From: a virus
IMG/VR virus record: IMGVR_UViG_640753022_000005
Coordinates: 874 to 64,873 of that record
Length of the DNA: 64,000 bases
Reading direction: 5' to 3' (one strand)
Part shown: positions 1,243-18,273 of the stretch, one piece after another
How the letters are laid out: each line of letters begins with the position of its first letter
How positions within the stretch are numbered: position 1 is the stretch's first letter
Made by a program: the position numbers and the translations under genes
The notes under the pieces: generated by a model
Told to the model about the DNA's origin: nothing
What the model saw: the letters and a program-made list of their open reading frames with translations, nothing else
The model's database searches: none

Positions 1243-1269
1243 GGTTAGTAGGGTTAGTAGGGTTAGTGG
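1243..1269. repeat. 3 x GGTTAGTAG direct repeat abutting the att core
   Basis: GGTTAGTAG at 1243 and 1252, GGTTAGTGG at 1261. Confidence 0.8.
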
Positions 1270-1283
1270 TGCGATAATAGGAG
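1267..1283 (-). other. Distal att core of the satellite (tRNA-Thr 3' end copy with 1-bp deletion)
   Basis: TGGTGC-GATAATAGGAG versus TGGTGCCGATAATAGGAG at 13259 and 62565. Confidence 0.75.
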
Positions 1284-1339
1284 CAAAAAACACATATAAG
1301 TCATTGATTAAAAAACATAAAAAACAAATGGCGGTGAAA

Positions 1340-1360
1340 GTGCCCCCATTCATGCCCCCA
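1340..1360. promoter_or_regulatory. Integrase arm-type repeats (left end)
   Basis: GTGCCCCCA (1340) and ATGCCCCCA (1352), 12 bp apart; same pair and spacing at 13125/13137. Confidence 0.6.
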
Positions 1361-1483
1361 CCTGACCATAGTTCCGACCTCATAGACATAACCCTACACC
1401 ATCAGGATCGCAGTGCGCTACTAAATCTAGGCCAAGCTAAATAAAATCCACTTGACCTGAATTATAATAGGATGTCGTCAAAT

Positions 1484-2707
1484 CTATGGCCAATCCCAGT
1501 TAGTATATTTTTCTAGCATCGCTTTTATTTCAGCTGGAGCCAGAGTATCTACGATATTCGCACGGTAAGAATGCTGTTTCAGTACTTTCGCTGATGTAAA
1601 ATTATGAGGGATATATGGATCAAACTTACCTAAAGGAGCAAGCAAATCTATATCTGTGTTAATAGTCTTGAGCCAGGAAGCCAAAATCACTTTTGCACCG
1701 GTTTGCTCAATATAAGCTCTACCCGATTCTAAACTATAACCTTTCGTAGTTATATCATCTATTAAAAGGACTGTTTTCCCCGGCCCCAAAGGACTTTTTA
1801 CATATCTTCTGGTAGCGCTTCGCATAGGCTTATAATTCAAACGAATTGTGTTTAGCTGATTTAAAAAATCAATCGCCATCTTATTATTTCGTGCGGTTTG
1901 AGATTTTATTGCATCAGTGTGTCTAATAATTAAATCAAAAAGATAATTCTTTCTAAAACACTTCCCGAATATAGATATAGCCTCGTTCATAACTGGGTTA
2001 CCATATCCAGCCTTGTGTCCAGGATAGACGCTAACGTAATCTATTTTTTTGTGAACCCCACTGAAATACAAACTAGAAACTATCGCACCAATCCAAAAAT
2101 CAGGATGCCCCGTACCATGTTTAGCTGCATTTCTAGCATGTTGAGAGTATAAAGTATTTTCTTCTTTCATTGTACTGAATGGTGCTAGTGCATAAAAATT
2201 GAAATCACCATCATGTATTTCGTGGCACCAAAGATGAGAGCGAAGACAAAAAGTATCAATGAATCTTGCGATATCTTTCGGTGATGCAAATTCAAAACCA
2301 TAATCCGTTTTATTTTCCCACCACGTAGCTCTTAAGAATAATAACTCTCCATTAACTGCGGTTCTCATGTCATCGTCAGTCGAACCAATATATATTGTTT
2401 CGGTAGAGCTCCATCCTTTTAAATTCAATATATATTCTATTGACTCAGCACGAGGTCTGGGTGGAATGCTCTTATCATCCGCATAACAGATATAACTGAA
2501 CTCCCCCCATTTCTCCTTGAGAAAATCTTCAAGTTTACTAGTTTCATTATAAGTCCATTGTCGATTAGTATGTATTACAAAGTCTAACCCCTTAGACTTG
2601 AAATAATTTATTAGTTTATTAACCTCTGAGAATATTGCACGATCTAATTTACCATTAGGACAGATAGTACCTTCAACACTTAGAATAACGCCCTTTATTC
2701 TAGTCAT
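1484..2707 (-). CDS. shosT: ShosT-like toxin: degenerate HAD-fold N-terminus plus phosphoribosyltransferase domain
   Basis: VILSVEGT and IYIGSTDDD (HAD-like motifs), VLLIDDITTKGYSL (PRPP-binding loop); directly downstream of a DprA-like gene. Confidence 0.8.
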   Translation of the reverse strand: MTRIKGVILSVEGTICPNGKLDRAIFSEVNKLINYFKSKGLDFVIHTNRQWTYNETSKLEDFLKEKWGEFSYICYADDKSIPPRPRAESIEYILNLKGWSSTETIYIGSTDDDMRTAVNGELLFLRATWWENKTDYGFEFASPKDIARFIDTFCLRSHLWCHEIHDGDFNFYALAPFSTMKEENTLYSQHARNAAKHGTGHPDFWIGAIVSSLYFSGVHKKIDYVSVYPGHKAGYGNPVMNEAISIFGKCFRKNYLFDLIIRHTDAIKSQTARNNKMAIDFLNQLNTIRLNYKPMRSATRRYVKSPLGPGKTVLLIDDITTKGYSLESGRAYIEQTGAKVILASWLKTINTDIDLLAPLGKFDPYIPHNFTSAKVLKQHSYRANIVDTLAPAEIKAMLEKYTNWDWP

Positions 2708-2716
2708 TTTCGTTTC

Positions 2717-3694
2717 CTATAAATCCAAACTCTGTTGTGTAGGCAGTAAATTAAGTGATTTATTTACAGAAGTTATATAATTTATTGCCTCATTCAATTT
2801 TAATGGCACTTCAAAATTCTCTGCACTCTTATTTTTTTCCGAAAACTCCAATTCAGTTCTAACATGATAAGTTAATGGCAAGTATAAATTTACTATTTTT
2901 CGCCCGTATGTATATGCATAATCAACAGTGTGAGCCGTACCGCTTTTTATTTTCCATTCAACGGGAATCAAAACTTGGCATAAAGCAGCTTGTAACCTAT
3001 TCCTTCGAACAAAATTTTCCGCACTATAACTTTGTCGTGGTAAGTATTCAGTAATTACTGTCCCCCCGTGCTTAACTATTTGCTCTCGTAATATATTTGA
3101 GCCTTTAGGGTACTCATTAAATATACCATTCCCAAGCACGGCTACTGTAGGAATGCCATATCTTAAAGATTCACTATGCGCGATTTGATCAATACCATAG
3201 GCTAAACCACTTACTGTAATAAAACCTCTATTTAAAAGAGATGCAACAATCAGCTTTGTAATAAAAATGCCATCATCACTAGGCTTTCTTGTTCCGACTA
3301 TCGCAACAGACTTACAATTTAAGTTCTCGAGTGAACCCTCAACAAAGATCCAATGAGGCGGATCTGGGATTTCTTTAAAACAGCGAGGAAAAGATTCATG
3401 ATCAAAGAATACTAATTTAATGCCTCGTTTACTGAGCTCTCGTGCTTTCTCAATACCTTCGTTCCAAAGGTTTTGTTGCATGGTTTCCCACTCGTCACCT
3501 TTAGGCAAATGCACCCTAAGAAAGCCAGCTAACCTAGCACAATCGGAAGATTTAAGTATTTCTTTGAAACCAATTTTTGATTCAGCTATTTTTCGTAACG
3601 TCCAATAGCTTACGCCCTTAATAGATGTCAATGCAAGGAAGGCTACTGTTTCATTTCTCCAGAAATCAAATTGAGCATCAGTAGATTTTTCCAT
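2717..3694 (-). CDS. shosA: ShosA-like DprA/Smf (SLOG) protein
   Basis: VAIVGTRKPS, TVSGLAYGIDQIAH, VAVLGNG, FVRRNRLQAAL, SGTAHTVDYA are DprA core motifs. Confidence 0.85.
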   Translation of the reverse strand: MEKSTDAQFDFWRNETVAFLALTSIKGVSYWTLRKIAESKIGFKEILKSSDCARLAGFLRVHLPKGDEWETMQQNLWNEGIEKARELSKRGIKLVFFDHESFPRCFKEIPDPPHWIFVEGSLENLNCKSVAIVGTRKPSDDGIFITKLIVASLLNRGFITVSGLAYGIDQIAHSESLRYGIPTVAVLGNGIFNEYPKGSNILREQIVKHGGTVITEYLPRQSYSAENFVRRNRLQAALCQVLIPVEWKIKSGTAHTVDYAYTYGRKIVNLYLPLTYHVRTELEFSEKNKSAENFEVPLKLNEAINYITSVNKSLNLLPTQQSLDL

Positions 3695-3960
3695 ATTGGC
3701 TTAGCCCTAAAAATTTCTTTCCAATAATTTAAGATTCCATTTGTCTATAAGGACTTTTTAGCATACGTAGGGCTCCTATTCTAGCCCTAACTTAACAAGG
3801 TTAAGAAGAGATGCTGAAATTTATCGAAAACTTCACCATAGCTCCTCACGAACACTTAAGTATAGAATCTTCCAATCAAAAAACCCATGTGGCTCAGCCG
3901 TAGCTTGCAACAATTTCGCCCTTATTCATTCGCGAAATAAAAGCGTTACAAACAAAAACG

Positions 3961-4110
3961 GCACTACACCGCACCCGCCTGCGGGTTCTGGATCACAAAA
4001 TTTTTTCAGTTTTGAGTTTTTACAGACGGTCCCGCCAGCCCGCGCCACTGCCGGGCAGGCGAGCCAGAAAGCAGACTGAAAAAGTTGAAAGAAATTTCAC
4101 TGTTTTTCAC
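3961..4110. other. Possible packaging (cos-like) region of the satellite
   Basis: GCACTACACCGCACCCGCC (3961-3979) loosely resembles the P2/186 19-nt cohesive end; non-coding, followed by A/T tracts; match is weak. Confidence 0.25.
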
Positions 4111-4319
4111 TTTCCATTCTTTACGAAGCTGTGCGGCAGAGAGTTAACCCCCTGATTTTACAGTTTAAATTTAACTTTTTGTGACCTGCCGACAGGGATT
4201 TCAGGCAGAGAAGATTTTACATGCGATTGATAATAAAAGGATTTTTTTATGATAAGACTGAAAAACACAGACATCGAAAACAGGGTGCCGGGCATGTTCG
4301 GAACGCCCGGCAGTTGTTG

Positions 4320-4592
4320 TTAATGCTTTTCTTCGGCCTCCTGTAACAACGCCAGCGCCTTTTTGCGGTCATGCTCTCCCAGTGAGTCAATCAGCTCCTT
4401 TACCCGCCCCTGCCCGCTCAGCGCACTGGGGCTGATGGTGTGTGAGAACGAGACATTCATTACAAAGGAGTGCCCGCATTCCATATTACTGCACTGGCAG
4501 TACACATCAGCCAGCTGGGGATGCTTCCGGTTGGTCTTGCGTATCTTTGCGTCTGCCAGACATACCGGGCAGGTCATTTTCATTATCCGCAT
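4320..4592 (-). CDS. ogr: Ogr/Delta-family zinc-finger late-gene activator
   Basis: CPVC...YCQCSNMECGHSFV...FSHTISPSAL signature. Confidence 0.9.
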   Translation of the reverse strand: MRIMKMTCPVCLADAKIRKTNRKHPQLADVYCQCSNMECGHSFVMNVSFSHTISPSALSGQGRVKELIDSLGEHDRKKALALLQEAEEKH

Positions 4593-4657
4593 GGTTATTC
4601 CTTTAAAACAGGCCCGCCAGAAATAAGGCTCCGGACATGGCGCTTTCTGTCAGAGAC

Positions 4658-4847
4658 GTGTAACAGTGGTAACACCGGTAACATCGTTGATATTAAAAGA
4701 AAAATCCCGTTACCACTGCGGTATTTACTGTGGTAACACGCGGTAACAGGCTGTTTTCTGTTACCAGTGTTACCACTCATGTTTTCTGACTGGTAACCGT
4801 CACAGGCCGCATAAACACAGGCTGTTACCTCTGTTACCAGTGTTACC
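4658..4847. repeat. Iteron cluster / probable replication origin of the satellite
   Basis: About 12 copies of TGTTACC/GGTAACA or close variants in both orientations, often 9 bp apart (4668, 4677, 4732, 4742, 4759, 4768, 4823, 4832, 4841), just downstream of the primase; analogous to P4 TGTTCACC iterons. Confidence 0.75.
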
Positions 4848-4871
4848 TCAGATAAATAAGGCTCGCGCGAT

Positions 4872-7559
4872 TTAAACCGGGTCCGCGCTCCCCAGTACCT
4901 GACTGTTAAACTGATACACCCGCTTGAGCCCTATCTCTGGCAGGCGGACGTTAGTCTGTGTACGCCCTTCGCTGCCCGCCTCCAGCCACCCGGCGGCTAC
5001 GCACAGCCGCGCCACCTTACGTGCATCAAAACCCCTGCAGATTTCCTTCCAGCCGGACGGCAGCACATAAAAGGTGGTTACCGGCTCGCTGTCATTACTG
5101 CCCTTCTCCACCTTACGGAACCCCATCATGGATACAGGCCGGTTGCGCTCGTCATGCCAGTCGGCAAAGCGGCTGAACTGGTTGCGGGTCATGAAGTCGC
5201 ACACCTGTTCCAGTGCGGCCTTATCCTCCTGATTAGCTGTATGGCCACGGTCAGCCATCCATGAGGCCAGACAACGCTCAGCGGCCCGGAAAGCCTCACC
5301 CTCCGGCCAGCCGGTGATACCGGCGCGGGTGGCCAGCTCCCCGGCCATTGCCACCAGAGCAAAGCGCGTGACTGCACGCCCGACCTGATTCCCCGCATCC
5401 TGCGGTGTCAGTCTGCGGGTGAACGCCTTCAGCATGGCTTTCGCCTCGCTGGTCACCTGCGGTAAATCCTGCGTCAGGTGATGCAGCCAGTCACGAAACG
5501 GCGCGCCGTGATGCAGCTTCACTGCCTGTTCAAGGTGCTCAGCCAGCGCCTTGCCGCCGCTGAAGCCGTGCAGCTCCTCAAACACGCCGTATCTGCCCGA
5601 ATCGCTGGGGATCTGGATCATCCTGACCTCAACACCGGCATAGGTGCGTTCTCCGGCATTTGCGGCGTGTTCAACCAGTGACAGCTCCCCGGTGGACAGA
5701 AACAGCAGGTTCCAGCGGCTGGTTTCCCGTACAGAACCGTCCGTTCTGGCGCGGGCCTTGCCCTGCCCGTTCGCCAGCATATAGGCGATGTTACCGGCCT
5801 CGCGCCCGTCCACCTCGCGGATTTCGTCAAGCATCAGCGTGGCGTCGTTGCGGCGGCTGGCCGTGCCTTCCAGCGCATTACCGGTGGCGCGCCACGTATG
5901 CCAGAAGTCGGTTCCCCCACAGACGGAAGCAGCCACCTTCATGGTGGTGGTTTTGCCGTCTGTGGATTCGCCCTTGAGGTGATAACCGCCCCCGCTCATG
6001 CCCACCAGTTGCAGCAGCGGTGCGGCAAAAGCCAGACTGACGGCAAAAGCCACCCGCGCATTCCCCACGCAGTAGCGACTTATCTGTTCGCGCCATTCGT
6101 CTGCCGTGCCGTTCACCCGGAAGTCACGGCCCTGCACGCTGCTGGTCTGTAGAATCACAGACTGCGCGTCACGACCTATCACTTCGTCCTGAAGCACATA
6201 GACGCCACCGTGCCAACCGGTTTTGTTCACGCAGGTCACTTTTCTGTCCGGTTTGCACAGCGAGATATATTCCATCAGATGCGCACGCGCCATCCCGTTG
6301 ATGTTGATATAGGAAAGCCCGTTAACCAGCAGCACGCGCCGCAGCTCTTCCCCGCTGCCGCCAAGCAGCTCCATCGGCATGGCCCATTTGCGGCTGTTGC
6401 CGTTGGTGTCCTCCCACTCCAGCAGGCGGCCATAATTACTGCCGTCAGCATCACAGGTAATGGCCGTCACACGCAGGGGGCTGCAAATTTTGATGTTGCG
6501 GATTTCCGTATCGCCGTCTGATTTGTTTACCTGCTTGTCATACCACAGATATTCCTTTGTCAGCCGGAACCCCTGCGGCAGACGGGTAAGCCCCCTGCCG
6601 TGCAGCGTCATTTCCTCCATAAACGCTTCACGGGCACGCCGCTCGCCCTGTTCACGACGAAAATCATCCCAGTCCGCTTTATGGCGGGTGGGCGGCAGGG
6701 TTACCCAGCCGTCAACGGCCTGTGCCGCCTTTTCCGCCTGAATGCGCCCGGTATTATCTTTACCATCCAGCAAGTCGTTATCCCCGGCCAGAACGATGCG
6801 CACGTCCGGCCAGCGCTGGCGCACCTGCTGCGCCACCTTCGGCAGATTACCGGCAGCCACCGCCGCCAGTATCAGCCCGTCAGCCAGCCCGCTGACGGTC
6901 AGGCCGGTGGCATAACCTTCGGTGATGATTACCTGCGCGGGCGGCTCTGCTGACGCGCCGGACACAGGAATAAATGCCCCGGACAGCTGGCTGCCCGGCA
7001 GCAGGCATTTTTCACCGTCAGGACTGATGAGCTGACCGCCGGTGATATTCCCGGCCATATCCGTGAGAGGAAGCAGTAAAGAACCCGGCGCAAACGTCAA
7101 CCCGGCCACGCTGACTGGCTGCTCCAGCAGGGAAAGCGTATGCCCGTGCAGCCCCCGCGCCGTCAGATAGGCACTTTCACCCTGTCGGGTCTGCTGCTGA
7201 AGCTGTGCAAAACGCCCCCGCCCCGTATTCCCGTCCATGGCCTTATTTCTGGCAGGCAATACGGGCTGGTTGCTTACGTCGGGTAATGACAGCGCTCCGG
7301 CCACCATGGCAGAAACGGCTTTAACATCCTGCCCGGTGGCAAGACGAACCAGATCCAGTCCGTCTCCGTTCCCGCACTGATTACAGAACCACGTTCCGCG
7401 TCCCTCCCTGTCGTCCAGACGAAAGCGATCCTTTCCGCCACAGACGGGGCAGGCTCCGTGCCTTTTTGCCGCCGGAACGCGGATACCCAGCGCGGAAAGA
7501 ATATGTGGCCAGCGGCCACGCGCGGCTGTTGCCACAGTACTGACTGATTGTGCTTTCAC
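4872..7559 (-). CDS. Primase-helicase (zinc ribbon + TOPRIM + DUF927 helicase), P4 alpha analogue
   Basis: HGACPVCGGKDRFR, ITEGYATG, AGDND, Walker A GESTDGKTT, LDE. Confidence 0.9.
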   Translation of the reverse strand: MKAQSVSTVATAARGRWPHILSALGIRVPAAKRHGACPVCGGKDRFRLDDREGRGTWFCNQCGNGDGLDLVRLATGQDVKAVSAMVAGALSLPDVSNQPVLPARNKAMDGNTGRGRFAQLQQQTRQGESAYLTARGLHGHTLSLLEQPVSVAGLTFAPGSLLLPLTDMAGNITGGQLISPDGEKCLLPGSQLSGAFIPVSGASAEPPAQVIITEGYATGLTVSGLADGLILAAVAAGNLPKVAQQVRQRWPDVRIVLAGDNDLLDGKDNTGRIQAEKAAQAVDGWVTLPPTRHKADWDDFRREQGERRAREAFMEEMTLHGRGLTRLPQGFRLTKEYLWYDKQVNKSDGDTEIRNIKICSPLRVTAITCDADGSNYGRLLEWEDTNGNSRKWAMPMELLGGSGEELRRVLLVNGLSYININGMARAHLMEYISLCKPDRKVTCVNKTGWHGGVYVLQDEVIGRDAQSVILQTSSVQGRDFRVNGTADEWREQISRYCVGNARVAFAVSLAFAAPLLQLVGMSGGGYHLKGESTDGKTTTMKVAASVCGGTDFWHTWRATGNALEGTASRRNDATLMLDEIREVDGREAGNIAYMLANGQGKARARTDGSVRETSRWNLLFLSTGELSLVEHAANAGERTYAGVEVRMIQIPSDSGRYGVFEELHGFSGGKALAEHLEQAVKLHHGAPFRDWLHHLTQDLPQVTSEAKAMLKAFTRRLTPQDAGNQVGRAVTRFALVAMAGELATRAGITGWPEGEAFRAAERCLASWMADRGHTANQEDKAALEQVCDFMTRNQFSRFADWHDERNRPVSMMGFRKVEKGSNDSEPVTTFYVLPSGWKEICRGFDARKVARLCVAAGWLEAGSEGRTQTNVRLPEIGLKRVYQFNSQVLGSADPV

Positions 7560-7966
7560 AGATAAGCCTCCCCGTCTTCCGCTGACACAAAGGCATATCC
7601 CGGCGGCAGCTTGCCATCCGGCGCGCCGAAAATAATATCCCGGTACACTTCCCGCAGCTCCGTCACGCCGTTAAGGGAAAGGCGCAGGCTTTCACCTGCA
7701 AAACCCGGTGCCAGCATCCGCTCAAGCGCTTCGGCAGCCAGCCAGCTGCCTTCTTCCGCGCCAAATTCTTCCCGCCAGGGCGTTTCGATATGGAAAAGGA
7801 TATTCAGCGCCACTTTTTCGGGGGTAAGCGGGATGCGCTCACCCTCTTCGGCATAGACAGCCTCGCCGTTAACACGGGTCATCAGGGCAATGAAAGCATC
7901 TGCAATATAGCGGCGCAGCAGCGCCGTACGGAATGCCGGGCTAAGGAGGGTGCTGTCATTTATCAT
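7556..7966 (-). CDS. DUF5375 / P4 orf106-like protein
   Basis: FRTALLRRYIADAFI and EEGSWLAAEALERM resemble P4 orf106; position before primase. Confidence 0.6.
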   Translation of the reverse strand: MINDSTLLSPAFRTALLRRYIADAFIALMTRVNGEAVYAEEGERIPLTPEKVALNILFHIETPWREEFGAEEGSWLAAEALERMLAPGFAGESLRLSLNGVTELREVYRDIIFGAPDGKLPPGYAFVSAEDGEAYL

Positions 7967-8189
7967 GGCGTTCTCCCTTCATCAGACTGCTTTCCCGGAT
8001 CACACCATCAAGCTGTTCGGCGATACAGGCGAACAGGGCCGCCGCCCCTTCCGCAGAAACCTCCCTGCTGCCTGCTGGTCCTGAACAGGACAGAACATCG
8101 GCAAGAAATTCGCTGGCCATGGCCGCACGCAACAGCCGGTTTTCGCCCTGTTCACTGAGAGTACAGACAGGTTGCTGATACGTTTTCAT
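7956..8189 (-). CDS. Hypothetical satellite protein
   Basis: Start MKTYQQ at 8189 forms an ATGA overlap with the ash stop. Confidence 0.6.
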   Translation of the reverse strand: MKTYQQPVCTLSEQGENRLLRAAMASEFLADVLSCSGPAGSREVSAEGAAALFACIAEQLDGVIRESSLMKGERHDK

Positions 8190-8758
8190 GCCCGTACCTC
8201 CCGGCGCTGGCAGACAGGAAGCCGTCCGGCAAAACACAACACATAATCCGAAATGAGTTGCGCACGTGCAGCACGTTCAGTACCGGCATTAACACGAACA
8301 GCTAATGGCTGCGCACCGCAGTCAGCGCGGCGAACGGCAAGAAAGAGAAAGGTAAATTCAGGATGTGATGAAGCGAGGACTGTAGCCATGGTGGCAACCT
8401 CCGTTAGATAGCGGGTAACGCTACCACCGGAGTTTCCACGCTCACTGGTGGTAGCCCAGACGGGGGTGGAAATACCGGCTCTAACGGATACCGGCCTGAC
8501 CGAAGTCAGCCCCGCCTGAGCCACCATTACACGATAGCCACAACGGCAAAGAAACCGCAGTGCAAGTAACAGATGCGCAAAGGCAATGACACAAAAAAAG
8601 ACGCAAGGCGCGTCTGGTGTCGCCGTTAGATTATTCAGGTTTCCACGCCCGGCTGCCGATTTTGCGGCAGCGGGAAAACTATAGCCCGCGCATTCGTTCA
8701 GGCGCAAGGGTTTTATAACCGAATTTTGTTGATTGATTATGCAGTTACGTCCTGCCAT
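8186..8758 (-). CDS. ash: Ash / Icd-like host cell-division inhibitor
   Basis: GYSFPAAAKSAAGRG, VMVAQAG, TPVWATT, FTFLFLAVRRAD..TERAARAQL motifs. Confidence 0.8.
   Translation of the reverse strand: MAGRNCIINQQNSVIKPLRLNECAGYSFPAAAKSAAGRGNLNNLTATPDAPCVFFCVIAFAHLLLALRFLCRCGYRVMVAQAGLTSVRPVSVRAGISTPVWATTSERGNSGGSVTRYLTEVATMATVLASSHPEFTFLFLAVRRADCGAQPLAVRVNAGTERAARAQLISDYVLCFAGRLPVCQRREVRA
8447..8527 (-). ncRNA. C4 / P4 CI-like immunity RNA
   Basis: GGTGGCTCAGGCGGGG...CCCCGTCTGGGCTACCACC closing stem with internal CTGAC-TTCG-GTCAG hairpin, inside ash as in P4/P1. Confidence 0.6.
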
Positions 8759-8854
8759 TCTGTCATTCCTCCGGCGTACCGCCAGACGTTACGGGGATTT
8801 CCTGAGTAAGTTTCCATCCGGCCCGCTGAATCCCAGCGGGCTTTTTTATGCCTG

Positions 8855-9856
8855 TTAAACCAGAGTAACGGCGCTTTCATCGACAGCGGCATAAAGCTCA
8901 GGATTACCCAGCGCGTAGCCTTCATTACGCAGGCATGAACGCACGTATTCAGCATTTTCCTCATCAAACTCAACCCGGAAATAGCGGGTATTTGCCTGCG
9001 TGTAGATATGCAGATTACTCAGGGTGGTGACGGCCAGACGCCTGCCGGGCATAAAAGGCGGGATAAAGGCAAAGCGCCCGGCCACTGAACTGCCCGCCAG
9101 CTGGGCTGCACTGATATCTGCCGCACGGTCTGCGGCGTTAAACAGTTTCAGGCGCTGCTGTGCGGCAAGCTCCGCGCCCACCAGGACAACCAGACGCGGG
9201 TCTTCCCGGAATGGCTCAGCAATGAAATTGGTAATAAGATGGTTGGCGAGCAGGTCGATATTTTTCCATTCACCCGTCTCACCCAGCGTAAGAGGTTCAG
9301 CCATAATCTGCTTACCGTTTTCATATTGCTTCGCCAGCGCATGCCAGCCGATATTGACGTCCTCGCCTTTTTTACAGGTTTCGGGATCGGTGGTGTCAGC
9401 TATTGCCATTCCGTTGAACCCCGTACGCAGCATATCCAGCGCAAGCGCCTCAGCAAAAAAAGCATCCATTGCTTTATCAAAATCGCCCGCCGCGCCAATA
9501 TTATAAATATCCGCCATTTCGCCATAGCTGATACTGGCGCACGTATCCGTTTCCGACAGCCAGAATTCACTGCCATTAATGGTAACTTTTTTGCGAAAAC
9601 GTCCACCCGCCGTTCTGCCGGTATGAAGCTCACTGGCTCCGATATTAATGGCATTACCTGACTGCGCATTTACATCCCGCAGCGTGATGTTATTCATCAT
9701 CCAGCCTGATTCGAGAATGGCAGCACGCAGCATATTTTCGGCAGGTGGCGCTAAAGCAAAGCGACGGTTTTCACCCTCCCTGTAAGCGGTGTCTTTAGTC
9801 AGTTTTTTATGGTAGCGGGCAGCCGCATCCGGCTTCTGGAATTTAAAAGCAAACAT
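8855..9856 (-). CDS. P2-family (HP1/K139-like) major capsid protein
   Basis: LDMLRTGFNG, EDVNIGW, EDPRLVVLVG, PPFMPGRRLAVTTLSNLHIYTQ, LRNEGYA match gpN-family motifs. Confidence 0.85.
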   Translation of the reverse strand: MFAFKFQKPDAAARYHKKLTKDTAYREGENRRFALAPPAENMLRAAILESGWMMNNITLRDVNAQSGNAINIGASELHTGRTAGGRFRKKVTINGSEFWLSETDTCASISYGEMADIYNIGAAGDFDKAMDAFFAEALALDMLRTGFNGMAIADTTDPETCKKGEDVNIGWHALAKQYENGKQIMAEPLTLGETGEWKNIDLLANHLITNFIAEPFREDPRLVVLVGAELAAQQRLKLFNAADRAADISAAQLAGSSVAGRFAFIPPFMPGRRLAVTTLSNLHIYTQANTRYFRVEFDEENAEYVRSCLRNEGYALGNPELYAAVDESAVTLV

Positions 9857-9874
9857 AGCTATTTACCTGATTAA

Positions 9875-10744
9875 TTAACGGGAGAAGAGTTTATTTTTGA
9901 GTTCGTCTGCTTTGCTGTAAGCCGCCATATAATCTGCATAATCCTGGTCACTGATAATCGCGCGTAAAAGTGTGTTCTCCGCCCGGTAATATTTACGGTA
10001 AGCCTCAGTACGAATTTTCCCGCCGTTATTCAGCAAATACCTGTCAGTGGGGTAAGAGCAAAGCCGGATAATTGCTCGCGTCGCAGCAGTCAGGGCATTC
10101 AGGCCGTCTGTAAACCCGGTAACGGCACTTTGCATAACGGTATCAGTAAAGAGCTCTGCCAACCCGGACGGAATACGCAGCGTGCGCGGGAAGGTATTCA
10201 GCAGGCGGGTATCAATACCTTTCCCGATATACTGTGCCTCAGCTGACAGCAGACCGGGTAATGACCTTGCCAGCTCCAGCCGTGACTGTTGCCGGGTCTG
10301 ATATGTCAGGGCCGCCTGATAACGGCGCCCGGCATCCTCGCGTGCCATGCTGCACCCCCGGCGGGTTCGCGCTTCAGACACCGTGTTACTTTTTCCGCTT
10401 GCCTGATTCATGACTGCCAGCGCCTCTGCGGCTTCGCGCTGGCGGAAAGAAAATTCATCTTCTTCCCGGCGGCAAATCTTCACGCAGCGGGCAACAAGCG
10501 CATTTATTTCTTCGGCCACCGCTTCAGTATCAGGAACCGTCAGCCCGGTGAGGGAAAAAAGCGTCTCGCCTTCTTCCCGCAGTTTATTGAGCGTGTGGAT
10601 TTCAATAATACGTGCCACACAGGCTGCATCGCTGCCATTTTCGGCAAAAGGAATAACTTTATATGCCTGAAGCGTTGCGACATTATTGTTTTTTAGTGAC
10701 GGAATGGCGAGAGAATGCCCTCCCGTGATAATGGGATTATTCAT
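9875..10744 (-). CDS. Hypothetical alpha-helical/coiled-coil protein (289 aa)
   Basis: Long ORF with RBS between alpA and capsid gene; no recognised family. Confidence 0.7.
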   Translation of the reverse strand: MNNPIITGGHSLAIPSLKNNNVATLQAYKVIPFAENGSDAACVARIIEIHTLNKLREEGETLFSLTGLTVPDTEAVAEEINALVARCVKICRREEDEFSFRQREAAEALAVMNQASGKSNTVSEARTRRGCSMAREDAGRRYQAALTYQTRQQSRLELARSLPGLLSAEAQYIGKGIDTRLLNTFPRTLRIPSGLAELFTDTVMQSAVTGFTDGLNALTAATRAIIRLCSYPTDRYLLNNGGKIRTEAYRKYYRAENTLLRAIISDQDYADYMAAYSKADELKNKLFSR

Positions 10745-10798
10745 GTGGTACTCCTTAATTGTGTAAGACTAGAATATGTACTTATTAAAACACCAGAA

Positions 10799-11029
10799 CT
10801 ATTCCCCAGAAACCGAATGGCTATCACGCCAAGCGTAATAATCCGCCGCACGCCAGCGAGACATTCTCCCCAGCTTTATTGGTTTCGGAAATTTACCTAA
10901 TGATATAAGTTTGTAAATCCACTTATCTGTAAACAAACAGTCTGAAGTAATAAACTTCATATCAATAAGTGAATCCGCAGCAGGTCGAGTGTCAGTAAAG
11001 GCCATTTGTAATTCCTCTCTATTCATCAA
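10799..11029 (-). CDS. alpA: AlpA-family regulator / excisionase
   Basis: WIYKLISLGKFPKPIKLGRMSRW motif. Confidence 0.9.
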   Translation of the reverse strand: MMNREELQMAFTDTRPAADSLIDMKFITSDCLFTDKWIYKLISLGKFPKPIKLGRMSRWRAADYYAWRDSHSVSGE

Positions 11030-11111
11030 TCTGTGTCAACGGAGAGGATTACAACACCGCATTAAACAGTAAAAAAGGCAAGTAAGAAAAAAAACTTACT
11101 TGCCACTTTTG

Positions 11112-11906
11112 TTAATTTTTTGTAAAAACTGGTTTGTTAAATATTGACGCCACTAATTTAGTCATGACAGGATGTGATAGTGGAGGCTGTTTTTCGTCTG
11201 GCCAGAACTCTTCCGCACGGTTAAACAATAGATCGACTAATGCCGTTGCATTCTCTTTTCTGAATGCTGAGTCTTCTTTATATAAATATATAATCGCACT
11301 AAGCACTTCATTTCTTTTAACTGCATGTCTTTGTTTCTGTGCTGCGGATAATGCTTCGTATTTATCATCAGACTGCTCAGATTCGTTCAAGACAAGATGA
11401 ATCTTTTTTATATACTCACGCTCTATATAACCTTCATTATCATAGCCAATACCCTCGTCATTTTGCCAGTCAACCTGTATAAACCTAACCATTTCTGAAT
11501 ATATCTTTCCTGAAGGTGTATACAGTGAAGGGTACTCAGGGAAATCCCCTTCATAATAAATAAAATCATGCCTGACTTTAGAAGGCATTGAAAAGAAACC
11601 TTTTGTACTGGCTAAAATTAAACTCTTCTCTTTCTTCACCTCATTTATTTTAATTAAACTGAATTCAGAAATATAACTAAAGCCTTCATGATCTTTATCT
11701 AAAGAATCAATATGTTTAATAAAGGCATCGACGTCTCTTACTTTGTGTTTTGAAAAAGTACACTGTCCGGACATTCTCATGACGAATGGAATATCCTTTT
11801 GTGTAGCAATATAAAAAATATCTCGCTCATCACATCCTAATAAATTCGCTGCTTCACTGATACTATAATGAATACGGTGTAGCTTGAGGGTGCTATTTTT
11901 CGCCAT
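11112..11906 (-). CDS. Hypothetical protein with N-terminal HTH-like segment, coupled to integrase
   Basis: YSISEAANLLGCDERDIFYIA; starts 6 bp after the int stop; AT-rich. Confidence 0.7.
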   Translation of the reverse strand: MAKNSTLKLHRIHYSISEAANLLGCDERDIFYIATQKDIPFVMRMSGQCTFSKHKVRDVDAFIKHIDSLDKDHEGFSYISEFSLIKINEVKKEKSLILASTKGFFSMPSKVRHDFIYYEGDFPEYPSLYTPSGKIYSEMVRFIQVDWQNDEGIGYDNEGYIEREYIKKIHLVLNESEQSDDKYEALSAAQKQRHAVKRNEVLSAIIYLYKEDSAFRKENATALVDLLFNRAEEFWPDEKQPPLSHPVMTKLVASIFNKPVFTKN

Positions 11907-11912
11907 TCTAAA

Positions 11913-13094
11913 TTAAGCCACTAGTCCATTAATAAAATCGCCGTACCATTGCATCATTTCTCTACGTCCATCAAGATACTGAGCATGGTTATAAATGCCA
12001 CGAATTGAATTTTTATCAAGATGAGCCAGTTGAGTTTCAATCCATGCACTGTTAAATCCCTTTTCGTGCAAAATTGTGCTCATCGTATGTCTAAACCCAT
12101 GACCGGTAACCCGCCCCCCATAACCTATGCGCTTAAAAACCTGATTGATACTGGCTTCACTCATGAACTTACTGGGATCGTTACGTCCGGGGAACATCAA
12201 CGGATAATTTCCTGTCAATTCTTTCAACCTTTTAAGGTAAACTAAGGCTTGTTTTGACAGCGGAACAATATGAGCACGACGCATTTTCATGCGTTCTTTA
12301 GGGATTTCCCATATAGCATTATCGAAGTCCACTTCACGCCATTCAGCTGCGCGTAACTCTCCAGTTCTCAACCCTGTCAGAATAAGCAAATGTGCTCCCA
12401 ATAAAACTATAGGGCTTCCAGTGTAGGCGTTCAAAACCGTGAAAAATTCAGGCAGTTCGCTGGCTTTAAGGAAAGGATAATGAACGGCCTCATGCCCTTG
12501 CATGGCGCTAGCGAGATCAGGCGCAGGATTATAGACAGCCCGCCCCGTTACGATGGCATAACGGAATACTTCTCCGCATCGCTGGCGAACTTTCTTCGCT
12601 TTTTCCATTGCGCCTCTGGCTTCTATCAGTCTCAGGACTTCCAGTAGCTCCAAAGGCTGAATATCAGCTATAGGACGGTGGCCAATGTGCGGGAAAATAT
12701 CTTTATCAAATGCCTCAAGAATGTCTGAAGCATATCCCTCGGACCATTTGGGCGACTTCATCTTGTGCCACTCTAACGCTACATCCCTGAACGGGTTGAC
12801 TATCTCAGTGGCGGCGATTAAAGCCAGCTTCTTTGCTTTCTTTACTTCACTGGGATCATCACCCGTTGCGAGTAGTTTCTTTGCCTCTTCGCGTTTTTGC
12901 CTAGCATCAGCAAGAGAGACAGTGGGATAAACACCAAAGGACAGGCGTTTCTCTTTACCGCCAAAACGGTATTTCATACGCCAGTATCGCGAACCATTAG
13001 GCTCTACCTGAAGATACAGGCCACCTCCATCAGAGAGCTTATAGCTCTTCTCTTTTCCTTTAGCGGCTTCAACCTTACGGGCATTCAGCATCAT
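11913..13094 (-). CDS. int: P4-type tyrosine integrase
   Basis: MMLNARKVEAAK..YKLSDGGGLYL; LTGLRTGELR, HGFRHTMST, QLAH, YNHAQY; start trimmed to MML. Confidence 0.95.
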   Translation of the reverse strand: MMLNARKVEAAKGKEKSYKLSDGGGLYLQVEPNGSRYWRMKYRFGGKEKRLSFGVYPTVSLADARQKREEAKKLLATGDDPSEVKKAKKLALIAATEIVNPFRDVALEWHKMKSPKWSEGYASDILEAFDKDIFPHIGHRPIADIQPLELLEVLRLIEARGAMEKAKKVRQRCGEVFRYAIVTGRAVYNPAPDLASAMQGHEAVHYPFLKASELPEFFTVLNAYTGSPIVLLGAHLLILTGLRTGELRAAEWREVDFDNAIWEIPKERMKMRRAHIVPLSKQALVYLKRLKELTGNYPLMFPGRNDPSKFMSEASINQVFKRIGYGGRVTGHGFRHTMSTILHEKGFNSAWIETQLAHLDKNSIRGIYNHAQYLDGRREMMQWYGDFINGLVA

Positions 13095-13145
13095 TGGGGG
13101 CACATTTCCTAGACCGAACAGGACATGCCCCCGATTGTGCCCCCA
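13095..13145. promoter_or_regulatory. Integrase arm-type repeats (right end)
   Basis: TGGGGGCAC (13095, inverted), ATGCCCCCG (13125), GTGCCCCCA (13137). Confidence 0.6.
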
Positions 13146-13258
13146 AGTACATGTTGATTTCAAGAGACAGGGGTTGACGTCAGATGACCAGAAATAGCGG
13201 GATAAGTATATTTTTAAAGGAATTTATTGATGTGAGTTGACTTGGAAATACTAACAGG

Positions 13259-13304
13259 TGGTGCCGATAATAGGAGTCGAACCTACGACCTTCGCATTAC
13301 GAAT
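13259..13304 (-). other. Prophage att repeat (46-bp copy of tRNA-Thr 3' half); also proximal att of the satellite
   Basis: Identical to 62565-62610. Confidence 0.95.
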
Positions 13305-13494
13305 TATAAGAACCACCTTGTAACACAGTAACTTACCGCGTCATACCTGCGCTCACACGTCCCATGACGCCAAAACATGCAAAGCTCTGCAAACCGGTGC
13401 AAAGCCTTGCGTGTCTCACATCTGTCCCACTACCCGTCGATCGATGCCGTGTCCGATGATAGACTCTTCCCCTTCAAATCTAACGGACTTAGAT

Positions 13495-13857
13495 ATGCTC
13501 AAGCTCTTCACGAAGTACGCCTCCGTGGGCGTGCTCAACACGCTAATCCATTGGGTAGTATTCGCAGCATGCTTCTATGCATTAGGAACCAGCCAGGCGC
13601 TGGCGAACTTAAGCGGATTCGTTGTTGCGGTAAGCTTTAGCTTCTTTGCAAACGCTCGCTTTACGTTCAACAGTTCAACTACTACGACGCGCTACATGCT
13701 TTACGTTTGCTTCATGGGCTCGCTTAGCGCAGCTGTTGGATGGGCCGCTGATAAATGCTCTCTCCCGCCAGTTGTGACACTGGTCGTGTTCTCAGTTATA
13801 AGCCTTGTGTGCGGGTTTATCTATTCGAAATACATCGTCTTCAGGGAAGCAAAATGA
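13495..13857 (+). CDS. gtrA: GtrA bactoprenol-glucose translocase
   Basis: [20 protein letters not shown]...[11 protein letters not shown]. Confidence 0.95.
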
Positions 13858-14783
13858 AGATTTCACTCGTAGTTCCGGTCTTTAATGAAGAAGACACAAT
13901 CCCTATTTTTTATAAAACCGTCAGAGAATATGAACCACTCAAATCGTTTGAGGTAGAAATAGTATTCATCAATGACGGCAGCAAAGACGCTACAGAGTCG
14001 ATTATCAATGCGCTGGCCGTTTCTGATCCGCTTGTTGTGCCCCTATCCTTCACCCGCAATTTCGGCAAAGAGCCGGCGCTTTTTGCAGGGCTGGACCATG
14101 CCACCGGCGACGCAGTGATTCCGATTGACGTCGATTTGCAGGACCCGATTGAAGTTATCCCGCAACTGATTGAACGCTGGCAGGCCGGGGCGGATGTCGT
14201 CTTGGCTAAACGTACAGACCGTTCTACAGATGGCCGCCTGAAGCGCAAAAGCGCTGAAATGTTCTATAAGCTGCATAACAAAATCAGTAACCCGAAGATC
14301 GAAGAGAACGTAGGTGATTTCAGACTCATGTCTCGGGATGTCGTGGAGAATATCAAGCTCCTGCCAGAGCGAAACCTGTTCATGAAAGGCGTTCTGTCAT
14401 GGGTTGGCGGCCGCACCGATATTGTGGAATACACCCGCGCTGAACGTATTGCAGGCAACACAAAATTCAATGGTTGGAAACTGTGGAACCTGGCGCTTGA
14501 GGGCATTACAAGCTTCTCCACCTTCCCACTTAGAATGTGGACATACATTGGCCTGGTGGTTGCTGGCTTTGCGTTTATGTATGGCGCATGGATGATTGTC
14601 GATACGCTGGCATTTGGAAACCCGGTAAGGGGTTACCCTTCTCTTCTGGTTTCGATTCTCTTCCTGGGAGGAATTCAGCTGATAGGGATTGGCGTTCTTG
14701 GTGAGTACATCGGAAGAATTTACATTGAGGTAAAAAACAGGCCTCGCTTTATAATTAAAAGAAAGGGGGAAAATAGCAAATGA
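13854..14783 (+). CDS. gtrB: GtrB bactoprenol glucosyltransferase
   Basis: [27 protein letters not shown], two C-terminal TMs; ATGA overlap with gtrA. Confidence 0.95.
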
Positions 14784-16258
14784 TGAATTTTTTGAGTGAA
14801 AAACTCAGCAAAAGGAACTCATTTTACATTTCTTTAATTATATCCACCCTTTTTGTTTATCCATTGATAAACGCGGGGGTGTATTACATTGATGACATAC
14901 CTCGCTCACAAACCGGATATGTGGGTTGGTTTCGACTTGGCAGACCACTTTCGGAATATATTTACACAATACTTTCACTTGGGCAGAACATAGCTATAGA
15001 TGTTTCTCCTTTGCCGCAAATGCTATCAATTTTAGTGATGGCCTGGTGCATTCAGGCACTTTCCAACGCTTTTTTCGCAGAAAGGACATTATCAACTATA
15101 GCAATATCTTCTCTGGCCTTCATTAGCCCGCTATTTTTACATAACATGGCGTACAAATATGATAGTCTGTCGATGGCACTATCTGTTGCGTCGTGCGTTA
15201 TTGCCTTTTCGATAGATTTAAGAAACAAACTCATTAATTATATTTTTAAGGGAGCATTGATATTTTCATCTCTCTGCCTTTATCAGGTGAGTGGAGTTAT
15301 ATATTTAATGCTTTGCATAGCAAAGTCAATAAAGAATATAGCCAACGGAGAGGCAGAGAACTTTAAAAGCATTTTTAAACCAGCAATTTTAACTCTTGCA
15401 TCGTATGCATCGTACATGGTCTGGCTTAAAGCCAACACCACAACCAGCAGATCCGGTACTGTTTTATCAGTTGAAAATGGAAAAGATATTTTCATTGGCA
15501 ACATAGAAAAGTTTGCCAACATGTATGGCAAAGCGTTTGATCCATTAACAACTAAGATTTTGTTTTTGGTGGCTACACTTTCAATTATATCTTATGCATA
15601 TAAAGCATTTTTAAATAAACAATCCCCTAAAAAATTAGCCGCCACTTTAGTTTCGTTATCGTTGTTACCCTTTCCTGCGATAATGATTATATTGGCTTCA
15701 TCAACAACTGTAATATTGTCAGAGTCATTGATAGTGCCTAGAATTGCTACGCCGTTTGGCGTTGTATTGATGTCAGTTCTGGCAGTTATATATTGCCAGT
15801 CCAAAAAGACGTCCGGGCTTATCGCTGGATATTTTCTGGCTGTAACGATTCTTGCATCATTTGCATTAGCCAATGCAATTAAGTCGCAATATGAGGTAGA
15901 CTTTGTAATAGTTTCTCAAATAAAGAAAGACATATCAGGAAGCCAAAAATTAAGCTCATCCAAAACAACGACTTTTGGTGTAATGAAGGAATCACCAGTA
16001 GTCGCTGTGAATTCACAGGTATTCCCTGTTATCAGGCTAATAAACAGCAAAATGTATGATGCATCTACCTCTACCATGCTGACCAGACTAGGAATCAGAA
16101 ACGTAAACTTTTCGTTTGAGAGGGCCAAATGGCAGGAAATAGCCAATGACGCATGCAGTGTCTCTTACCCAGATGTGTCTACTACGGATTATTCGATTTA
16201 CAATAAAGATGGTCAGAATTATGTATTTTTAGGTGGAAAACCAAAACTCTGTAAATAA
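14780..16258 (+). CDS. Serotype-specific membrane glucosyltransferase (GtrC-type, Glucos_trans_II-like)
   Basis: Polytopic, AT-rich, [15 protein letters not shown] motif, third gene of the gtr operon. Confidence 0.8.
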
Positions 16259-16261
16259 ACT

Positions 16262-16283
16262 GAGGGGCTTTCGCCCCTCTTTT
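16262..16283. terminator. Intrinsic terminator between gtr and tailspike
   Basis: GAGGGGC-TTTC-GCCCCTC-TTTT. Confidence 0.75.
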
Positions 16284-18273
16284 AGTTGTATAGAACAATC
16301 TCTACCGTAGCGGCAGTTACGGTCAACATGTTATATACAGCACCGGCTGCCGTGTATGTATTAACGGTTATTGATTTATTGCCATATGTTGCCACATTGC
16401 ACTGACCGCCGTTAGTCAGTCTTACCGTGCAGTTTTCTACGGCTTTCTGTGTAACATGGCTTGGGAACTGAATTGTAAAGCCGGTTGATAGCGGAGTTAC
16501 TGTTCCAGTAATTGTCTCAATGTCTGTTTTCGTAACAGATCCATTTGAAAAGTTTATTCGCGCTTTACGCGTAAAATCAACTGTTAAATCTGTAACTACG
16601 GCGAGCCGCAGAAACATTGGGGAGCGGGATGTAGTTATTCCTCTAACGGTAATGTTAGATACTGCACTGCCAGTGAATGCTATCAATGGAGCAGGGGTGC
16701 CACTACTACCACCACCAATATTATCGTGAATGTTAGCTATAGTGATGTTCTGGACGCTTTGCGTATCATGCCCAACAAGGATAGGCGTTGATTCACCTGG
16801 ACATGTGATCACAACATTGCTCAACATCCCGTTATTGCCCGATATATTGTAAGCGATAATATCTGTGCGCCCCACGGAGGAATCCTTAGGTACGCCATTG
16901 ATATTATGGTTAGTAATCAACCATCGGTTAGATTTGTAAGTTGGAGACTGGCCTTGACCGACTGCATAAACAGGAACTCCCGCGGCGTATTTAATGGTCT
17001 GGAAAACCATATTTGATGCGATATAGTCGGTGATGTTGTTATTTTCGTCATTGAAAATCATGCCACCGTTGCCGCCCTCCTGAATCGCGTTATTCAGGAT
17101 GAAACGTTGAGAAGCGCGGATTGCGAGCATCCACTGGTTGCGGTCATCACGCCCAATCCAGCGACCTATCATATTGTTGGCAATAACGTTTACGTTGCCG
17201 TTAGTATCGCCGCCGGAGCCAGTGGACATATACAGCAGGTGTCGGCCGTTCGGTGCAGCCTCTACCGTCTGCATCACGTTATTGATGATGGTTTCTTTGG
17301 CGTTGTCAGTAAGAACTGAATAACCAGCACGACCGCCGCCGACATCATCACCAGTATGGTAGACCTGCTTTTCGGTAATAACGTCATTAACAATCGCGTT
17401 CCTTGCCTGACTGACATAGACGCCACCTGCCAGTCCAGCGAAGGAGCGAACCCCACGCACAATCAGGTTTTTGGTGTAACGTGTTAATAACGCGAACGAG
17501 GAAATGGCCTCATTAGTATTATCTGTCGGAGAAGAAGTGCCGCCAGCCTGAATATCATTGATGGTTACATTGGTTGTAGGAGCTGCGTCAGTTCCAAGCA
17601 TCCCATACACCGCAGATTTACCAGAAGTGTCCGTGACCTTGCCGCCGCGCCCTTCCACGAACTGGTTATTTGTAAGACGATAAACCATGCGGGACTGCAT
17701 CTCAGGGAGATAGGTATTGGAGTTCGTTGATATATCTTTATCTATCTCAACATCGCGCCCGTTAGAGAAAACCCCGGCCACTCCAGTAGCATACCCATCA
17801 GGCCGTCGGTCAATGGCATTCAAGTCTGCAGCAATGGTTCCACGGTGATTGGTTCCAATCATCGCCGCCCCGGATATTGACGCCAACATGGACCTGAGGG
17901 CGGAGTCGCCAACGCTAATCCAGCCACCCACACCAGTTCCGCCTGTAGATTCAGGAGTAGATCCGGCCGGAACAACCTTCGGAAGAGAACCATCCCACCT
18001 GTAATACTCGTTGCTTGATGTGTCTTTCAGAATCTGGTTTGGTAGAGTAATCGTGGCCCCTGCCTGAAATGAATTAACTGGTATCCAGCCAAACGCAGCA
18101 ATAGCCTGGCGTGCCAGTTGGCTCAAGCCCTCTATTGTGTAATGTTCATTACCGAAACGGTCAACATATGTAGTGACAAGCGAAGTAACAAACTCGTCGA
18201 TTTTACCGGCGTTAAACTTCAGGTCGCGCGGAGATTCACTCGGTACTGGATTATTAGTAGGTTGCGTAGCCAT
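16282..18273 (-). CDS. Tailspike / receptor-binding protein with beta-helix depolymerase-like body
   Basis: N-terminal MATQPTNNPVPSESPRDLKFNAGKIDEFV anchor, YYRWDGSLPKVVPAGSTP tailspike N-domain, then N/G/I/V-rich repeats. Confidence 0.85.
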   Translation of the reverse strand: MATQPTNNPVPSESPRDLKFNAGKIDEFVTSLVTTYVDRFGNEHYTIEGLSQLARQAIAAFGWIPVNSFQAGATITLPNQILKDTSSNEYYRWDGSLPKVVPAGSTPESTGGTGVGGWISVGDSALRSMLASISGAAMIGTNHRGTIAADLNAIDRRPDGYATGVAGVFSNGRDVEIDKDISTNSNTYLPEMQSRMVYRLTNNQFVEGRGGKVTDTSGKSAVYGMLGTDAAPTTNVTINDIQAGGTSSPTDNTNEAISSFALLTRYTKNLIVRGVRSFAGLAGGVYVSQARNAIVNDVITEKQVYHTGDDVGGGRAGYSVLTDNAKETIINNVMQTVEAAPNGRHLLYMSTGSGGDTNGNVNVIANNMIGRWIGRDDRNQWMLAIRASQRFILNNAIQEGGNGGMIFNDENNNITDYIASNMVFQTIKYAAGVPVYAVGQGQSPTYKSNRWLITNHNINGVPKDSSVGRTDIIAYNISGNNGMLSNVVITCPGESTPILVGHDTQSVQNITIANIHDNIGGGSSGTPAPLIAFTGSAVSNITVRGITTSRSPMFLRLAVVTDLTVDFTRKARINFSNGSVTKTDIETITGTVTPLSTGFTIQFPSHVTQKAVENCTVRLTNGGQCNVATYGNKSITVNTYTAAGAVYNMLTVTAATVEIVLYN

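Follow-up and report, generated by a model that had tools for sequence, protein, structure and literature searches.

What use would a satellite related to P4 have for a P2-family major capsid gene of its own, with no portal, terminase or known scaffold gene beside it? The question is raised by a 12.0-kb element in the IMG/VR provirus record IMGVR_UViG_640753022_000005 (record length 64,875 bp), of which a stretch of 64,000 nt, hereafter the window, was analysed. The element spans positions 1267-13276, is bounded by 17/18-nt attachment (att) repeats at a tRNA-Thr fragment, and is an integrated, apparently intact satellite related to P4. It has the general marks of a satellite, namely an integrase with att repeats, its own replication and a helper-type packaging site, together with the lack of a virion set. 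Without the proteins by which P4 shrinks capsids, and with a diverged coat gene and a conserved partner in their place, it suggests that satellite-sized heads are made in a manner so far undescribed. The reading favoured here, with some reserve, is that this is probably an ESSI-2-type satellite that uses a private capsid protein and a partner, the product of orf289, to make or resize small heads.

The capsid gene (8855..9856, minus strand) encodes a P2-family major capsid protein of 333 amino acids (PF05125, E 7e-64; phrog_70, E 8e-79). The Pfam match is full length (profile positions 5-325 of 327) and scores 216 bits against a cut-off of 27; the score under the NCBIfam equivalog model TIGR01551 is 197 bits, below the cut-off of 219.65. 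Sequence matches in the PDB are to gpN (7OZ4, 7JW1), and PF05125 is matched only once in the whole 64.9-kb record. Peduoviridae prophage markers (portal, terminase, gpO scaffold, tail genes) were not found beside the gene. The nearest phage capsids are ESSI-2-like, at 46-51% identity, with those of Aeromonas and Vibrio phages near 40%. A closeness to the HP1/K139 branch, claimed in the original prediction, did not emerge, HP1 and K139 being absent among the best matches, without a direct comparison. The N-terminal region of approximately 30 residues is systematically unlike the phage type; an F-(S/A/T) motif is kept there, aligning with F31/T32 of P2 gpN, which we take to be the position of gpO cleavage.

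A scan of species-representative genomes yielded 80 loci, 27 of which have the satellite architecture. The gene order is common to these 27 loci, which come from at least 15 genera of the Enterobacterales, and genes for portal, terL, terS or sheath are missing from all of them over a distance of 10 kb. The remaining loci are ESSI-2-like prophages with the order ogr-portal-terL / scaffold-capsid-terS ... sheath. Maximum-likelihood analysis places all 22 full-length coats of satellites in a single clade (support 100/100) beside the ESSI-2-like phage capsids, with a stem branch of 1.31 substitutions per site and with internal branching that tracks host families. The ratio of nonsynonymous to synonymous substitution rates (dN/dS) against the closest relative is 0.075, at a dS of 0.47. 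Because of this monophyly, the long stem, the branching by host family and the low dN/dS, the satellite capsid gene is best regarded as old, functional and specialised, and not as debris. The gene was thus rightly predicted to be of the gpN family and intact, and degeneration of the capsid across relatives, one of the outcomes that had been named as fatal to the prediction, is contradicted by a single conserved clade under purifying selection. In a separate observation, the satellite capsid gene of Siccibacter colletis (locus L007, G002:C26:28591-29589) contains one in-frame TAG.

Directly upstream of the capsid gene lies orf289 (9875..10744, minus strand), an all-helical orphan and a candidate scaffold or size determinant. 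No match to it was found in Pfam, PHROG, NCBIfam or PADLOC. Its family comprises 17 clusters by word-based search and 51 representatives by exhaustive profile search, with full-length members of 276-308 amino acids, and dN/dS against the closest relative is 0.12. What is informative about it is its placing in genomes: in every satellite locus, orf289 is directly upstream of the coat gene, and its most distant relatives (profile E 1e-16 to 8e-4) also stand immediately upstream of a PF05125 gene. The description of the capsid as a lone gpN paralogue must therefore be given up, since the capsid is always paired with orf289 in a conserved two-gene module, and a survey of complete E. coli genomes gave matches to this pair in 483 out of 5426. 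At three further loci (L090, L091 and L093), the orf289-capsid pair is found on another backbone, which consists of a P2-type integrase, a helix-turn-helix repressor, a PF25738 derepression protein and a Toprim primase of 887-891 amino acids. The occurrence of the pair on different backbones indicates that the two-gene module moves between satellite chassis. Smaller variations have also been seen in Intestinirhabdus, Buttiauxella and Ca. Erwinia dacicola (L012-L014), where the longest ATG-started orf289 frame is longer (340 amino acids) and where approximately 400 bp between the capsid gene and the immunity region may hold another small gene.

By profile comparison, the product of orf289 is not a plain Sid homologue, as hhalign gave a probability of 0.9% for P4 Sid. 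The corresponding value for P4 Psu was 0.5%, and comparison of the profile with ESSI-2-type gpO was negative, as were a BLASTP comparison with the scaffold of ESSI2_ev129 and a tblastn search of 50,697 phage records. An AlphaFold2 (AF2) model of the protein is all-helical, with a mean predicted local distance difference test (pLDDT) score of 85; residues 77-161 form a long coiled-coil hairpin of antiparallel helices. Against the AFDB clusters, the model matched one unnamed cluster of 273 amino acids (E 3e-7, template modelling score 0.54).

An indication of what the module does comes from a sister clade of the satellite (L016-L025), found in Pectobacteriaceae, Yersiniaceae and Morganellaceae, with Brenneria, Pectobacterium, Yersinia, Rahnella, Xenorhabdus and Proteus as hosts. 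Here, a gene for a protein of 173-176 amino acids follows right after the capsid gene (approximately 10995-11526 in each locus). The protein corresponds to the peptidase half of gpO only (PF05929, E 3e-42, positions 3-140 of 268), and the scaffold half is missing. The residues aligning with D19, H48 and S107 of P2 gpO, presumably the catalytic triad, are kept. Some members of the lineage thus hold partner, coat and protease together, which argues that the module serves head construction and not only interference. By its position, orf289 stands in place of the missing scaffold part of gpO and likely has its role.

The type of helper is indicated by the packaging site. A non-coding block at 3935..4110, kept in all related satellites, was identified as the cos region. 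In the phage collection, this block matches only ESSI-2-like phages, and does so at the extreme ends of their linear records. When the record of Cronobacter phage ESSI-2 is circularised, the window cos aligns across the end junction at 78-91% identity. Both ends of that record carry the same 15 nt, GCGGGTGCGGTGTAG, of which window positions 3964-3978 are the exact reverse complement. These positions lie in a core of 22 nt (3961-3982) that does not vary among 18 satellite loci, whose hosts range from Franconibacter to Proteus. Five whole genomes were searched with a cos 16-mer and with a control pattern; the control gave zero matches, and exact matches to the 16-mer were confined to the satellite and to sites approximately 15-16 kb from the capsid gene of ESSI-2-like prophages, barring one further match in genome G002. 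In G002, the genome of Siccibacter colletis, the satellite is accompanied by an ESSI-2-like prophage, and the 16-mer has a third copy on another contig. The P2 cos 19-mer is absent from the element at up to three mismatches. In ESSI-2-like prophages, an ogr gene stands beside the portal gene, and its product shares 45-60% identity with the Ogr of the satellite; to P4 Delta, the latter is only 25% identical (E 0.009).

Identical cos cores, together with the similarity of capsid and Ogr, indicate that the helper type is an ESSI-2-like member of the Peduoviridae (Seongnamvirus/Quadragintavirus) and not P2 itself. The prediction of a peduovirus helper therefore holds as far as a P2-related phage is concerned, but not for the P2/HP1 type that had been proposed. 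Since the capsid gene and its candidate scaffold orf289 are all that is present of a head module and there is no terminase, packaging must use the helper terminase by way of the shared cos. In size, the satellite (12.0 kb) amounts to 0.39-0.42 of the helper type (28.8-30.9 kb); by our own arithmetic, the volume ratio expected of heads with triangulation numbers T=4 and T=7 is (4/7)^1.5 = 0.43, so that the genome ratio fits such a pair of heads. The P4/P2 genome ratio, for comparison, is 0.35. A 15.4-kb record, 'Salmonella phage S.Kent 1-2-1', was considered as a possible satellite and rejected, because it has terminase and portal genes and is part of an ESSI-2-like phage.

From these components, a course of events can be envisaged. 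After induction of, or infection by, a helper, the satellite would replicate, and the Ogr proteins of satellite and helper would cross-activate late genes, upon which the alpA-orf289-capsid operon would be expressed. The satellite coat, guided by orf289 as a dedicated scaffold or size determinant, would assemble small heads, probably of T=4, which would accommodate 12 kb and exclude the helper genome of 29-31 kb. Portal, terminase, head completion, tail and lysis would be provided by the helper, as would, in the clade to which the window belongs, the gpO protease. Possession of its own coat protein would free the satellite from helper coat mutations that escape size redirection.

Several observations weigh against this account. 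Structure prediction, which had been proposed for both proteins, was informative in one case only: the orf289 model is confident but resembles none of the known scaffold folds, and its top PDB matches in Foldseek are generic helical hairpins; searches of VIA-align wide, BFVD and Atlas likewise gave generic helical-hairpin matches only, and a language-model Atlas look-up gave no usable match. The capsid model, with a pLDDT of 52, was too poor to support statements on curvature or interfaces and was set aside. The capsid gene has a weak Shine-Dalgarno sequence, which is easier to reconcile with a minor component of the shell than with its only one. With regard to regulation, a TTCGG-N13-CCGAA dyad is present in ESSI-2-type prophages between terL and the scaffold gene, but neither the window nor any of eight relatives has it upstream of alpA/orf289, so that control of the capsid genes by Ogr remains putative. 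P2-type dyads (TGT-N12-ACA) are not enriched either, with seven found and 12.7 expected. In RNA-run contigs, depth is shallowest over orf289/alpA and deepest over the defence pair ShosTA; the low depth would fit repression in uninduced cells without proving it. Raw RNA reads were available for two runs (X22 and X23), both from element-free strains, and hence give no expression profile. Finally, among 401 genomes sampled from the family of genome G001, only two of the 13 satellite carriers have an ESSI-2-like prophage.

How the coat and its partner would act can be pictured in several ways. In the most far-reaching version, the capsid protein and orf289 would be a private coat-plus-scaffold pair that builds complete T=4 shells on the helper portal without helper coat, with orf289 as a scaffold of a new kind that sets head size and has no relation to Sid, gpO or CpmB. 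This is put forward tentatively, as a serious possibility that falls short of being probable. If true, mutations by which the helper coat escapes redirection would not affect the satellite, and the protease-only gpO of the sister clade would complete a minimal three-gene head kit.

A mixed shell appears rather unlikely, but is the nearest competitor to a private shell. Here, the satellite coat would take certain positions, for example the pentamers, in a mostly-helper shell and so force a smaller T number, with orf289 assisting or chaperoning it. There is a precedent in SaPIbov5, in which the pentamers of the T=4 procapsid are made up of Ccm (PMC8569155); the weak ribosome-binding site of the capsid gene would suit such a role, and the window's clade, which lacks a protease and scaffold of its own, would need helper head proteins in any case. 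The sister-clade protease and the constant dedicated partner are, however, more equipment than Ccm needs, and an identity of 46-51% after a long stem neither favours nor excludes co-assembly.

That the pair acts through interference alone is improbable. The diverged coat and orf289 would then poison or misdirect helper heads, and the satellite would be carried in normal helper heads, as multimers, or would hardly travel. Satellites commonly lower helper yield, this element already has a defence pair, and most carrier genomes are without a resident helper, so that host protection could be the selected trait. Nevertheless, selection for packaging is evident from the invariant, helper-identical cos core and from the full set of excision and replication functions, a genome of approximately 0.4 of the helper size fits a small head, and a protease-only gpO in the sister clade is hard to explain through poisoning alone. 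Least credible by far is a now functionless capsid gene, left over from the recombination of a P4-like island with a degraded P2-like prophage, because the in-frame TAG of the Siccibacter relative and the score below the NCBIfam equivalog cut-off are set against a gene order shared by 27 loci of no fewer than 15 genera, a monophyletic clade under purifying selection, the frequency of the pair in complete E. coli genomes, and the absence of other prophage debris between the att repeats.

The interval originally proposed (4320-13094) is only a part of the element, as cos, ShosTA and both att repeats fall outside. Adjoining the integrase gene is a 46-nt 3' fragment of tRNA-Thr(CGU) (13259..13304, minus strand), read from the sequence; ARAGORN found no complete tRNA there. 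The first 18 nt of the fragment form the attL core (13259-13276, TGGTGCCGATAATAGGAG). They recur at the far end of the satellite as the attR core (1267..1283, TGGTGCGATAATAGGAG), which matches at 17/18 nt with one base missing, and it is from this recurrence that the size of approximately 12.0 kb follows. In element-free strains, the reads diverge just before 13259-13261 and resume as tRNA past 13304, and E. coli relatives are integrated at tRNA-Thr beside proA.

All satellite genes are on the minus strand, in the order int, orf264, alpA, orf289, capsid, 'Ash' open reading frame (ORF), orf93, orf136, primase, iterons and ogr, so that the gene order and orientation as first described were borne out by the ORF listing and family scans. 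The same is true of P4-type integration, immunity and primase parts with an Ogr/Delta activator, which Pfam, PHROG and the P4 comparisons support, and of the stated absence of sid, psu, portal and terminase. Family scans and six-frame tblastn with P4 proteins found no Sid, Psu, epsilon, portal, terminase or scaffold in the element. For Sid, this applies to both BLASTP and tblastn with the P4 protein; for Psu, no element ORF has a Pfam match, and P4 Psu was not matched by BLASTP or tblastn; P4 epsilon has no sequence match at E <= 0.01, and a functional analogue among orf93, orf136 and orf61 is possible. When all P4 proteins were used in six-frame tblastn, Int (43%), the 'cI' ORF (57%) and the N-terminus of alpha (40%) were recovered, with Vis and Delta weak.

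The P4-type tyrosine integrase (int, 11913..13163; PF00589, PF13356, PF22022) is 43% identical to P4 Int over 410 amino acids. Adjoining it is orf264 (11112..11906), which is low in guanine plus cytosine (approximately 35-39%), has homologues of varying identity (29-78%) in related satellites and has no family match in Pfam, PHROG, NCBIfam or PADLOC scans. It was considered as a homologue of P4 cII, of equal length (264 amino acids) and position, and this was rejected, as there is no similarity; orf264 may be a second accessory or defence slot. The AlpA/Vis-type regulator (10799..11029; PF05930, E 4.6e-4; phrog_66, phrog_2790) has its probable ATG start at 11005 and is 27% identical to P4 ORF88/Vis (E 4e-5). 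Downstream of the immunity region are orf93 (7956..8237; phrog_38507) and orf136 (7556..7966; phrog_5991, a profile of 106 positions), both kept in related satellites. They are followed by a primase-helicase with zinc-ribbon, Toprim and DUF927 parts (4872..7559; Pfam; phrog_1139, E 4e-174), whose N-terminal 320 amino acids are 40% identical to P4 alpha and whose C-terminal part is unrelated. A direct repeat family (D1) of GTTACC/GGTAAC units at 4640..4850 forms an iteron cluster and is the probable replication origin. In the same region are orf61 (4595..4780, minus strand), kept in related satellites at 39-82% identity and without a family match in Pfam and NCBIfam scans, and ogr (4320..4592), which encodes an Ogr/Delta-type zinc-finger late activator (PF04606, E 2.3e-17).

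Immunity is of the P4/P1 antisense-RNA type. Three Rfam families score above their gathering thresholds at 8444..8684 on the minus strand (RF01695 79.8 bits, RF03163 54.6 bits, RF01394 77.3 bits), with a C4 RNA at 8444-8531, a1/b1 targets at 8632-8684 and an isrK-like RNA at 8594-8671. All of these overlap the 'Ash'/cI-type ORF (8186..8758, minus strand; PF10554, E 6.6e-33), which follows the coat gene closely on its downstream side and shares 57% identity with the 'cI' ORF of P4. The C-terminus of this ORF is Icd-like (NF033153 at residues 135-182), and only these 48 amino acids look like a protein domain. Since the PF10554 ORF overlaps the RNA immunity locus, much of that Pfam family may model a translated RNA locus. 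The alpA-orf289-capsid genes are placed between a PLL-like position and the immunity region, and their late expression is plausible by analogy with P4.

Between ogr and attR, the element carries a defence pair, composed of ShosT, a toxin resembling phosphoribosyltransferases and haloacid dehalogenases (1484..2707, minus strand; PADLOC E 1.6e-92; Pfam HAD_2 and Pribosyltran, weak), and ShosA, a DprA-like antitoxin (2717..3694, minus strand; PADLOC E 2.1e-92; PF02481, E 2.8e-59). An E. coli relative (L002) also has this pair. In one RNA library (X17), the ShosTA contigs have 8-25 times the word depth of the remaining satellite, which suggests strong constitutive expression.

The DNA beyond 13304 is evidently the end of a second prophage. 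From there to 64000, the window contains gtrA, gtrB and gtrC (13411-16258), a tailspike gene (16282-18273), a gene for a tape measure protein of 1160 amino acids and an integrase gene (62749-63990). We read this prophage and the satellite as a tandem at the same tRNA-Thr site. The prophage has no P2-type capsid gene and is therefore not the helper of the satellite. Among the database records, three labelled Vagococcus sp. WN89Y or Bacillota, the latter two being metagenome-assembled genomes (L015, L044 and L054), contain enterobacterial satellite or ESSI-2-like DNA at up to 99-100% protein identity, and their labels are probably due to contamination or mislabelling.

Comparison with known systems begins with P4, the textbook case of capsid piracy, whose relatives are catalogued by sid and psu. 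The core of P4-like satellites in SatelliteFinder consists of int, psu, delta, sid, alpA, epsilon and alpha (PMC8628076, PMC10085698). The present element shares with P4 its integrase (43%), a tRNA att site, a weakly matching Vis/AlpA regulator, the N-terminal primase part of alpha (40%), an activator of the Ogr/Delta family with weak similarity to Delta and RNA immunity of the CI/C4 type (the 'cI' ORF 57% identical, with the C4 match in Rfam), as well as a cos that reproduces that of the helper, a length of approximately 12 kb (about 0.4 of the helper) and defence cargo beside cos. It differs in the lack of Sid, Psu and epsilon, in the DUF927 helicase part, in having all genes in one direction, in a cos of ESSI-2 type in place of the P2 19-mer, and in the PF05125 capsid and orf289, both of which are absent from P4. 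With three of the seven core genes missing, as judged by BLASTP/tblastn with P4 proteins and by Pfam, it falls outside the P4-like Types A-C (PMC10085698). The lineage does not fit the definition by sid and psu. It is common (at least 15 Enterobacterales genera), and its target is another group of P2-related phages, one that has received little study. In a full-text literature search, no P4-related satellite was found described as having a coat gene of the P2 family. The small-head problem, for which P4 Sid is the published precedent of size redirection (PMC6893505), appears to be solved in this lineage through a coat paralogue and an orphan partner. Confirmation would provide a new mechanism of capsid size control in a tractable two- or three-gene system, would broaden the models used in satellite detection, and would account for many of the genes outside prophages that are annotated as 'P2 family major capsid protein'.

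Closer to the present case in its use of a coat paralogue is SaPIbov5, whose Ccm is a capsid-protein homologue found in the pentamers of T=4 procapsids (PMC8569155) and 23% identical to the helper coat (PMC6893505). Both are cos-type satellites without their own terminase or portal, and both encode a diverged paralogue of the HK97-fold coat of the helper, phi12 in the case of SaPIbov5 (PMC8569155, PMC5052747). Redirection to T=4 is established for Ccm; for the present satellite, the analogy is a genetic one. Lineage and host (Staphylococcus aureus) are unrelated, coat identity is 23% there and 46-51% here, and the helper there is a prolate siphophage and here an isometric P2-type phage. An obligatory partner gene, and in the sister clade a protease domain, are further differences on the side of the present satellite. 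With gpO of helper phages, orf289 shares the position directly upstream of the coat gene, and with Sid and scaffold domains an all-helical build with a long coiled coil, but it differs from ESSI-2-type gpO, Sid and Psu in showing no similarity of sequence profile and no fold match. Phage-inducible chromosomal islands of the capsid-forming kind (cfPICIs) resemble the element as chromosomal islands with int, alpA, primase and their own major capsid protein (PMC10085698). They hold a full head and packaging module of capsid, protease, portal, head-tail connectors, TerS, TerL and HNH (PMC10085698), whereas the satellite has the coat gene and orf289 only, and no portal, protease, connectors, TerS or TerL was found in it. 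If the private coat-plus-scaffold pair proves true, it would therefore stand as a third strategy, between that of P4, which reshapes the helper coat, and that of the cfPICIs, which bring the whole head.

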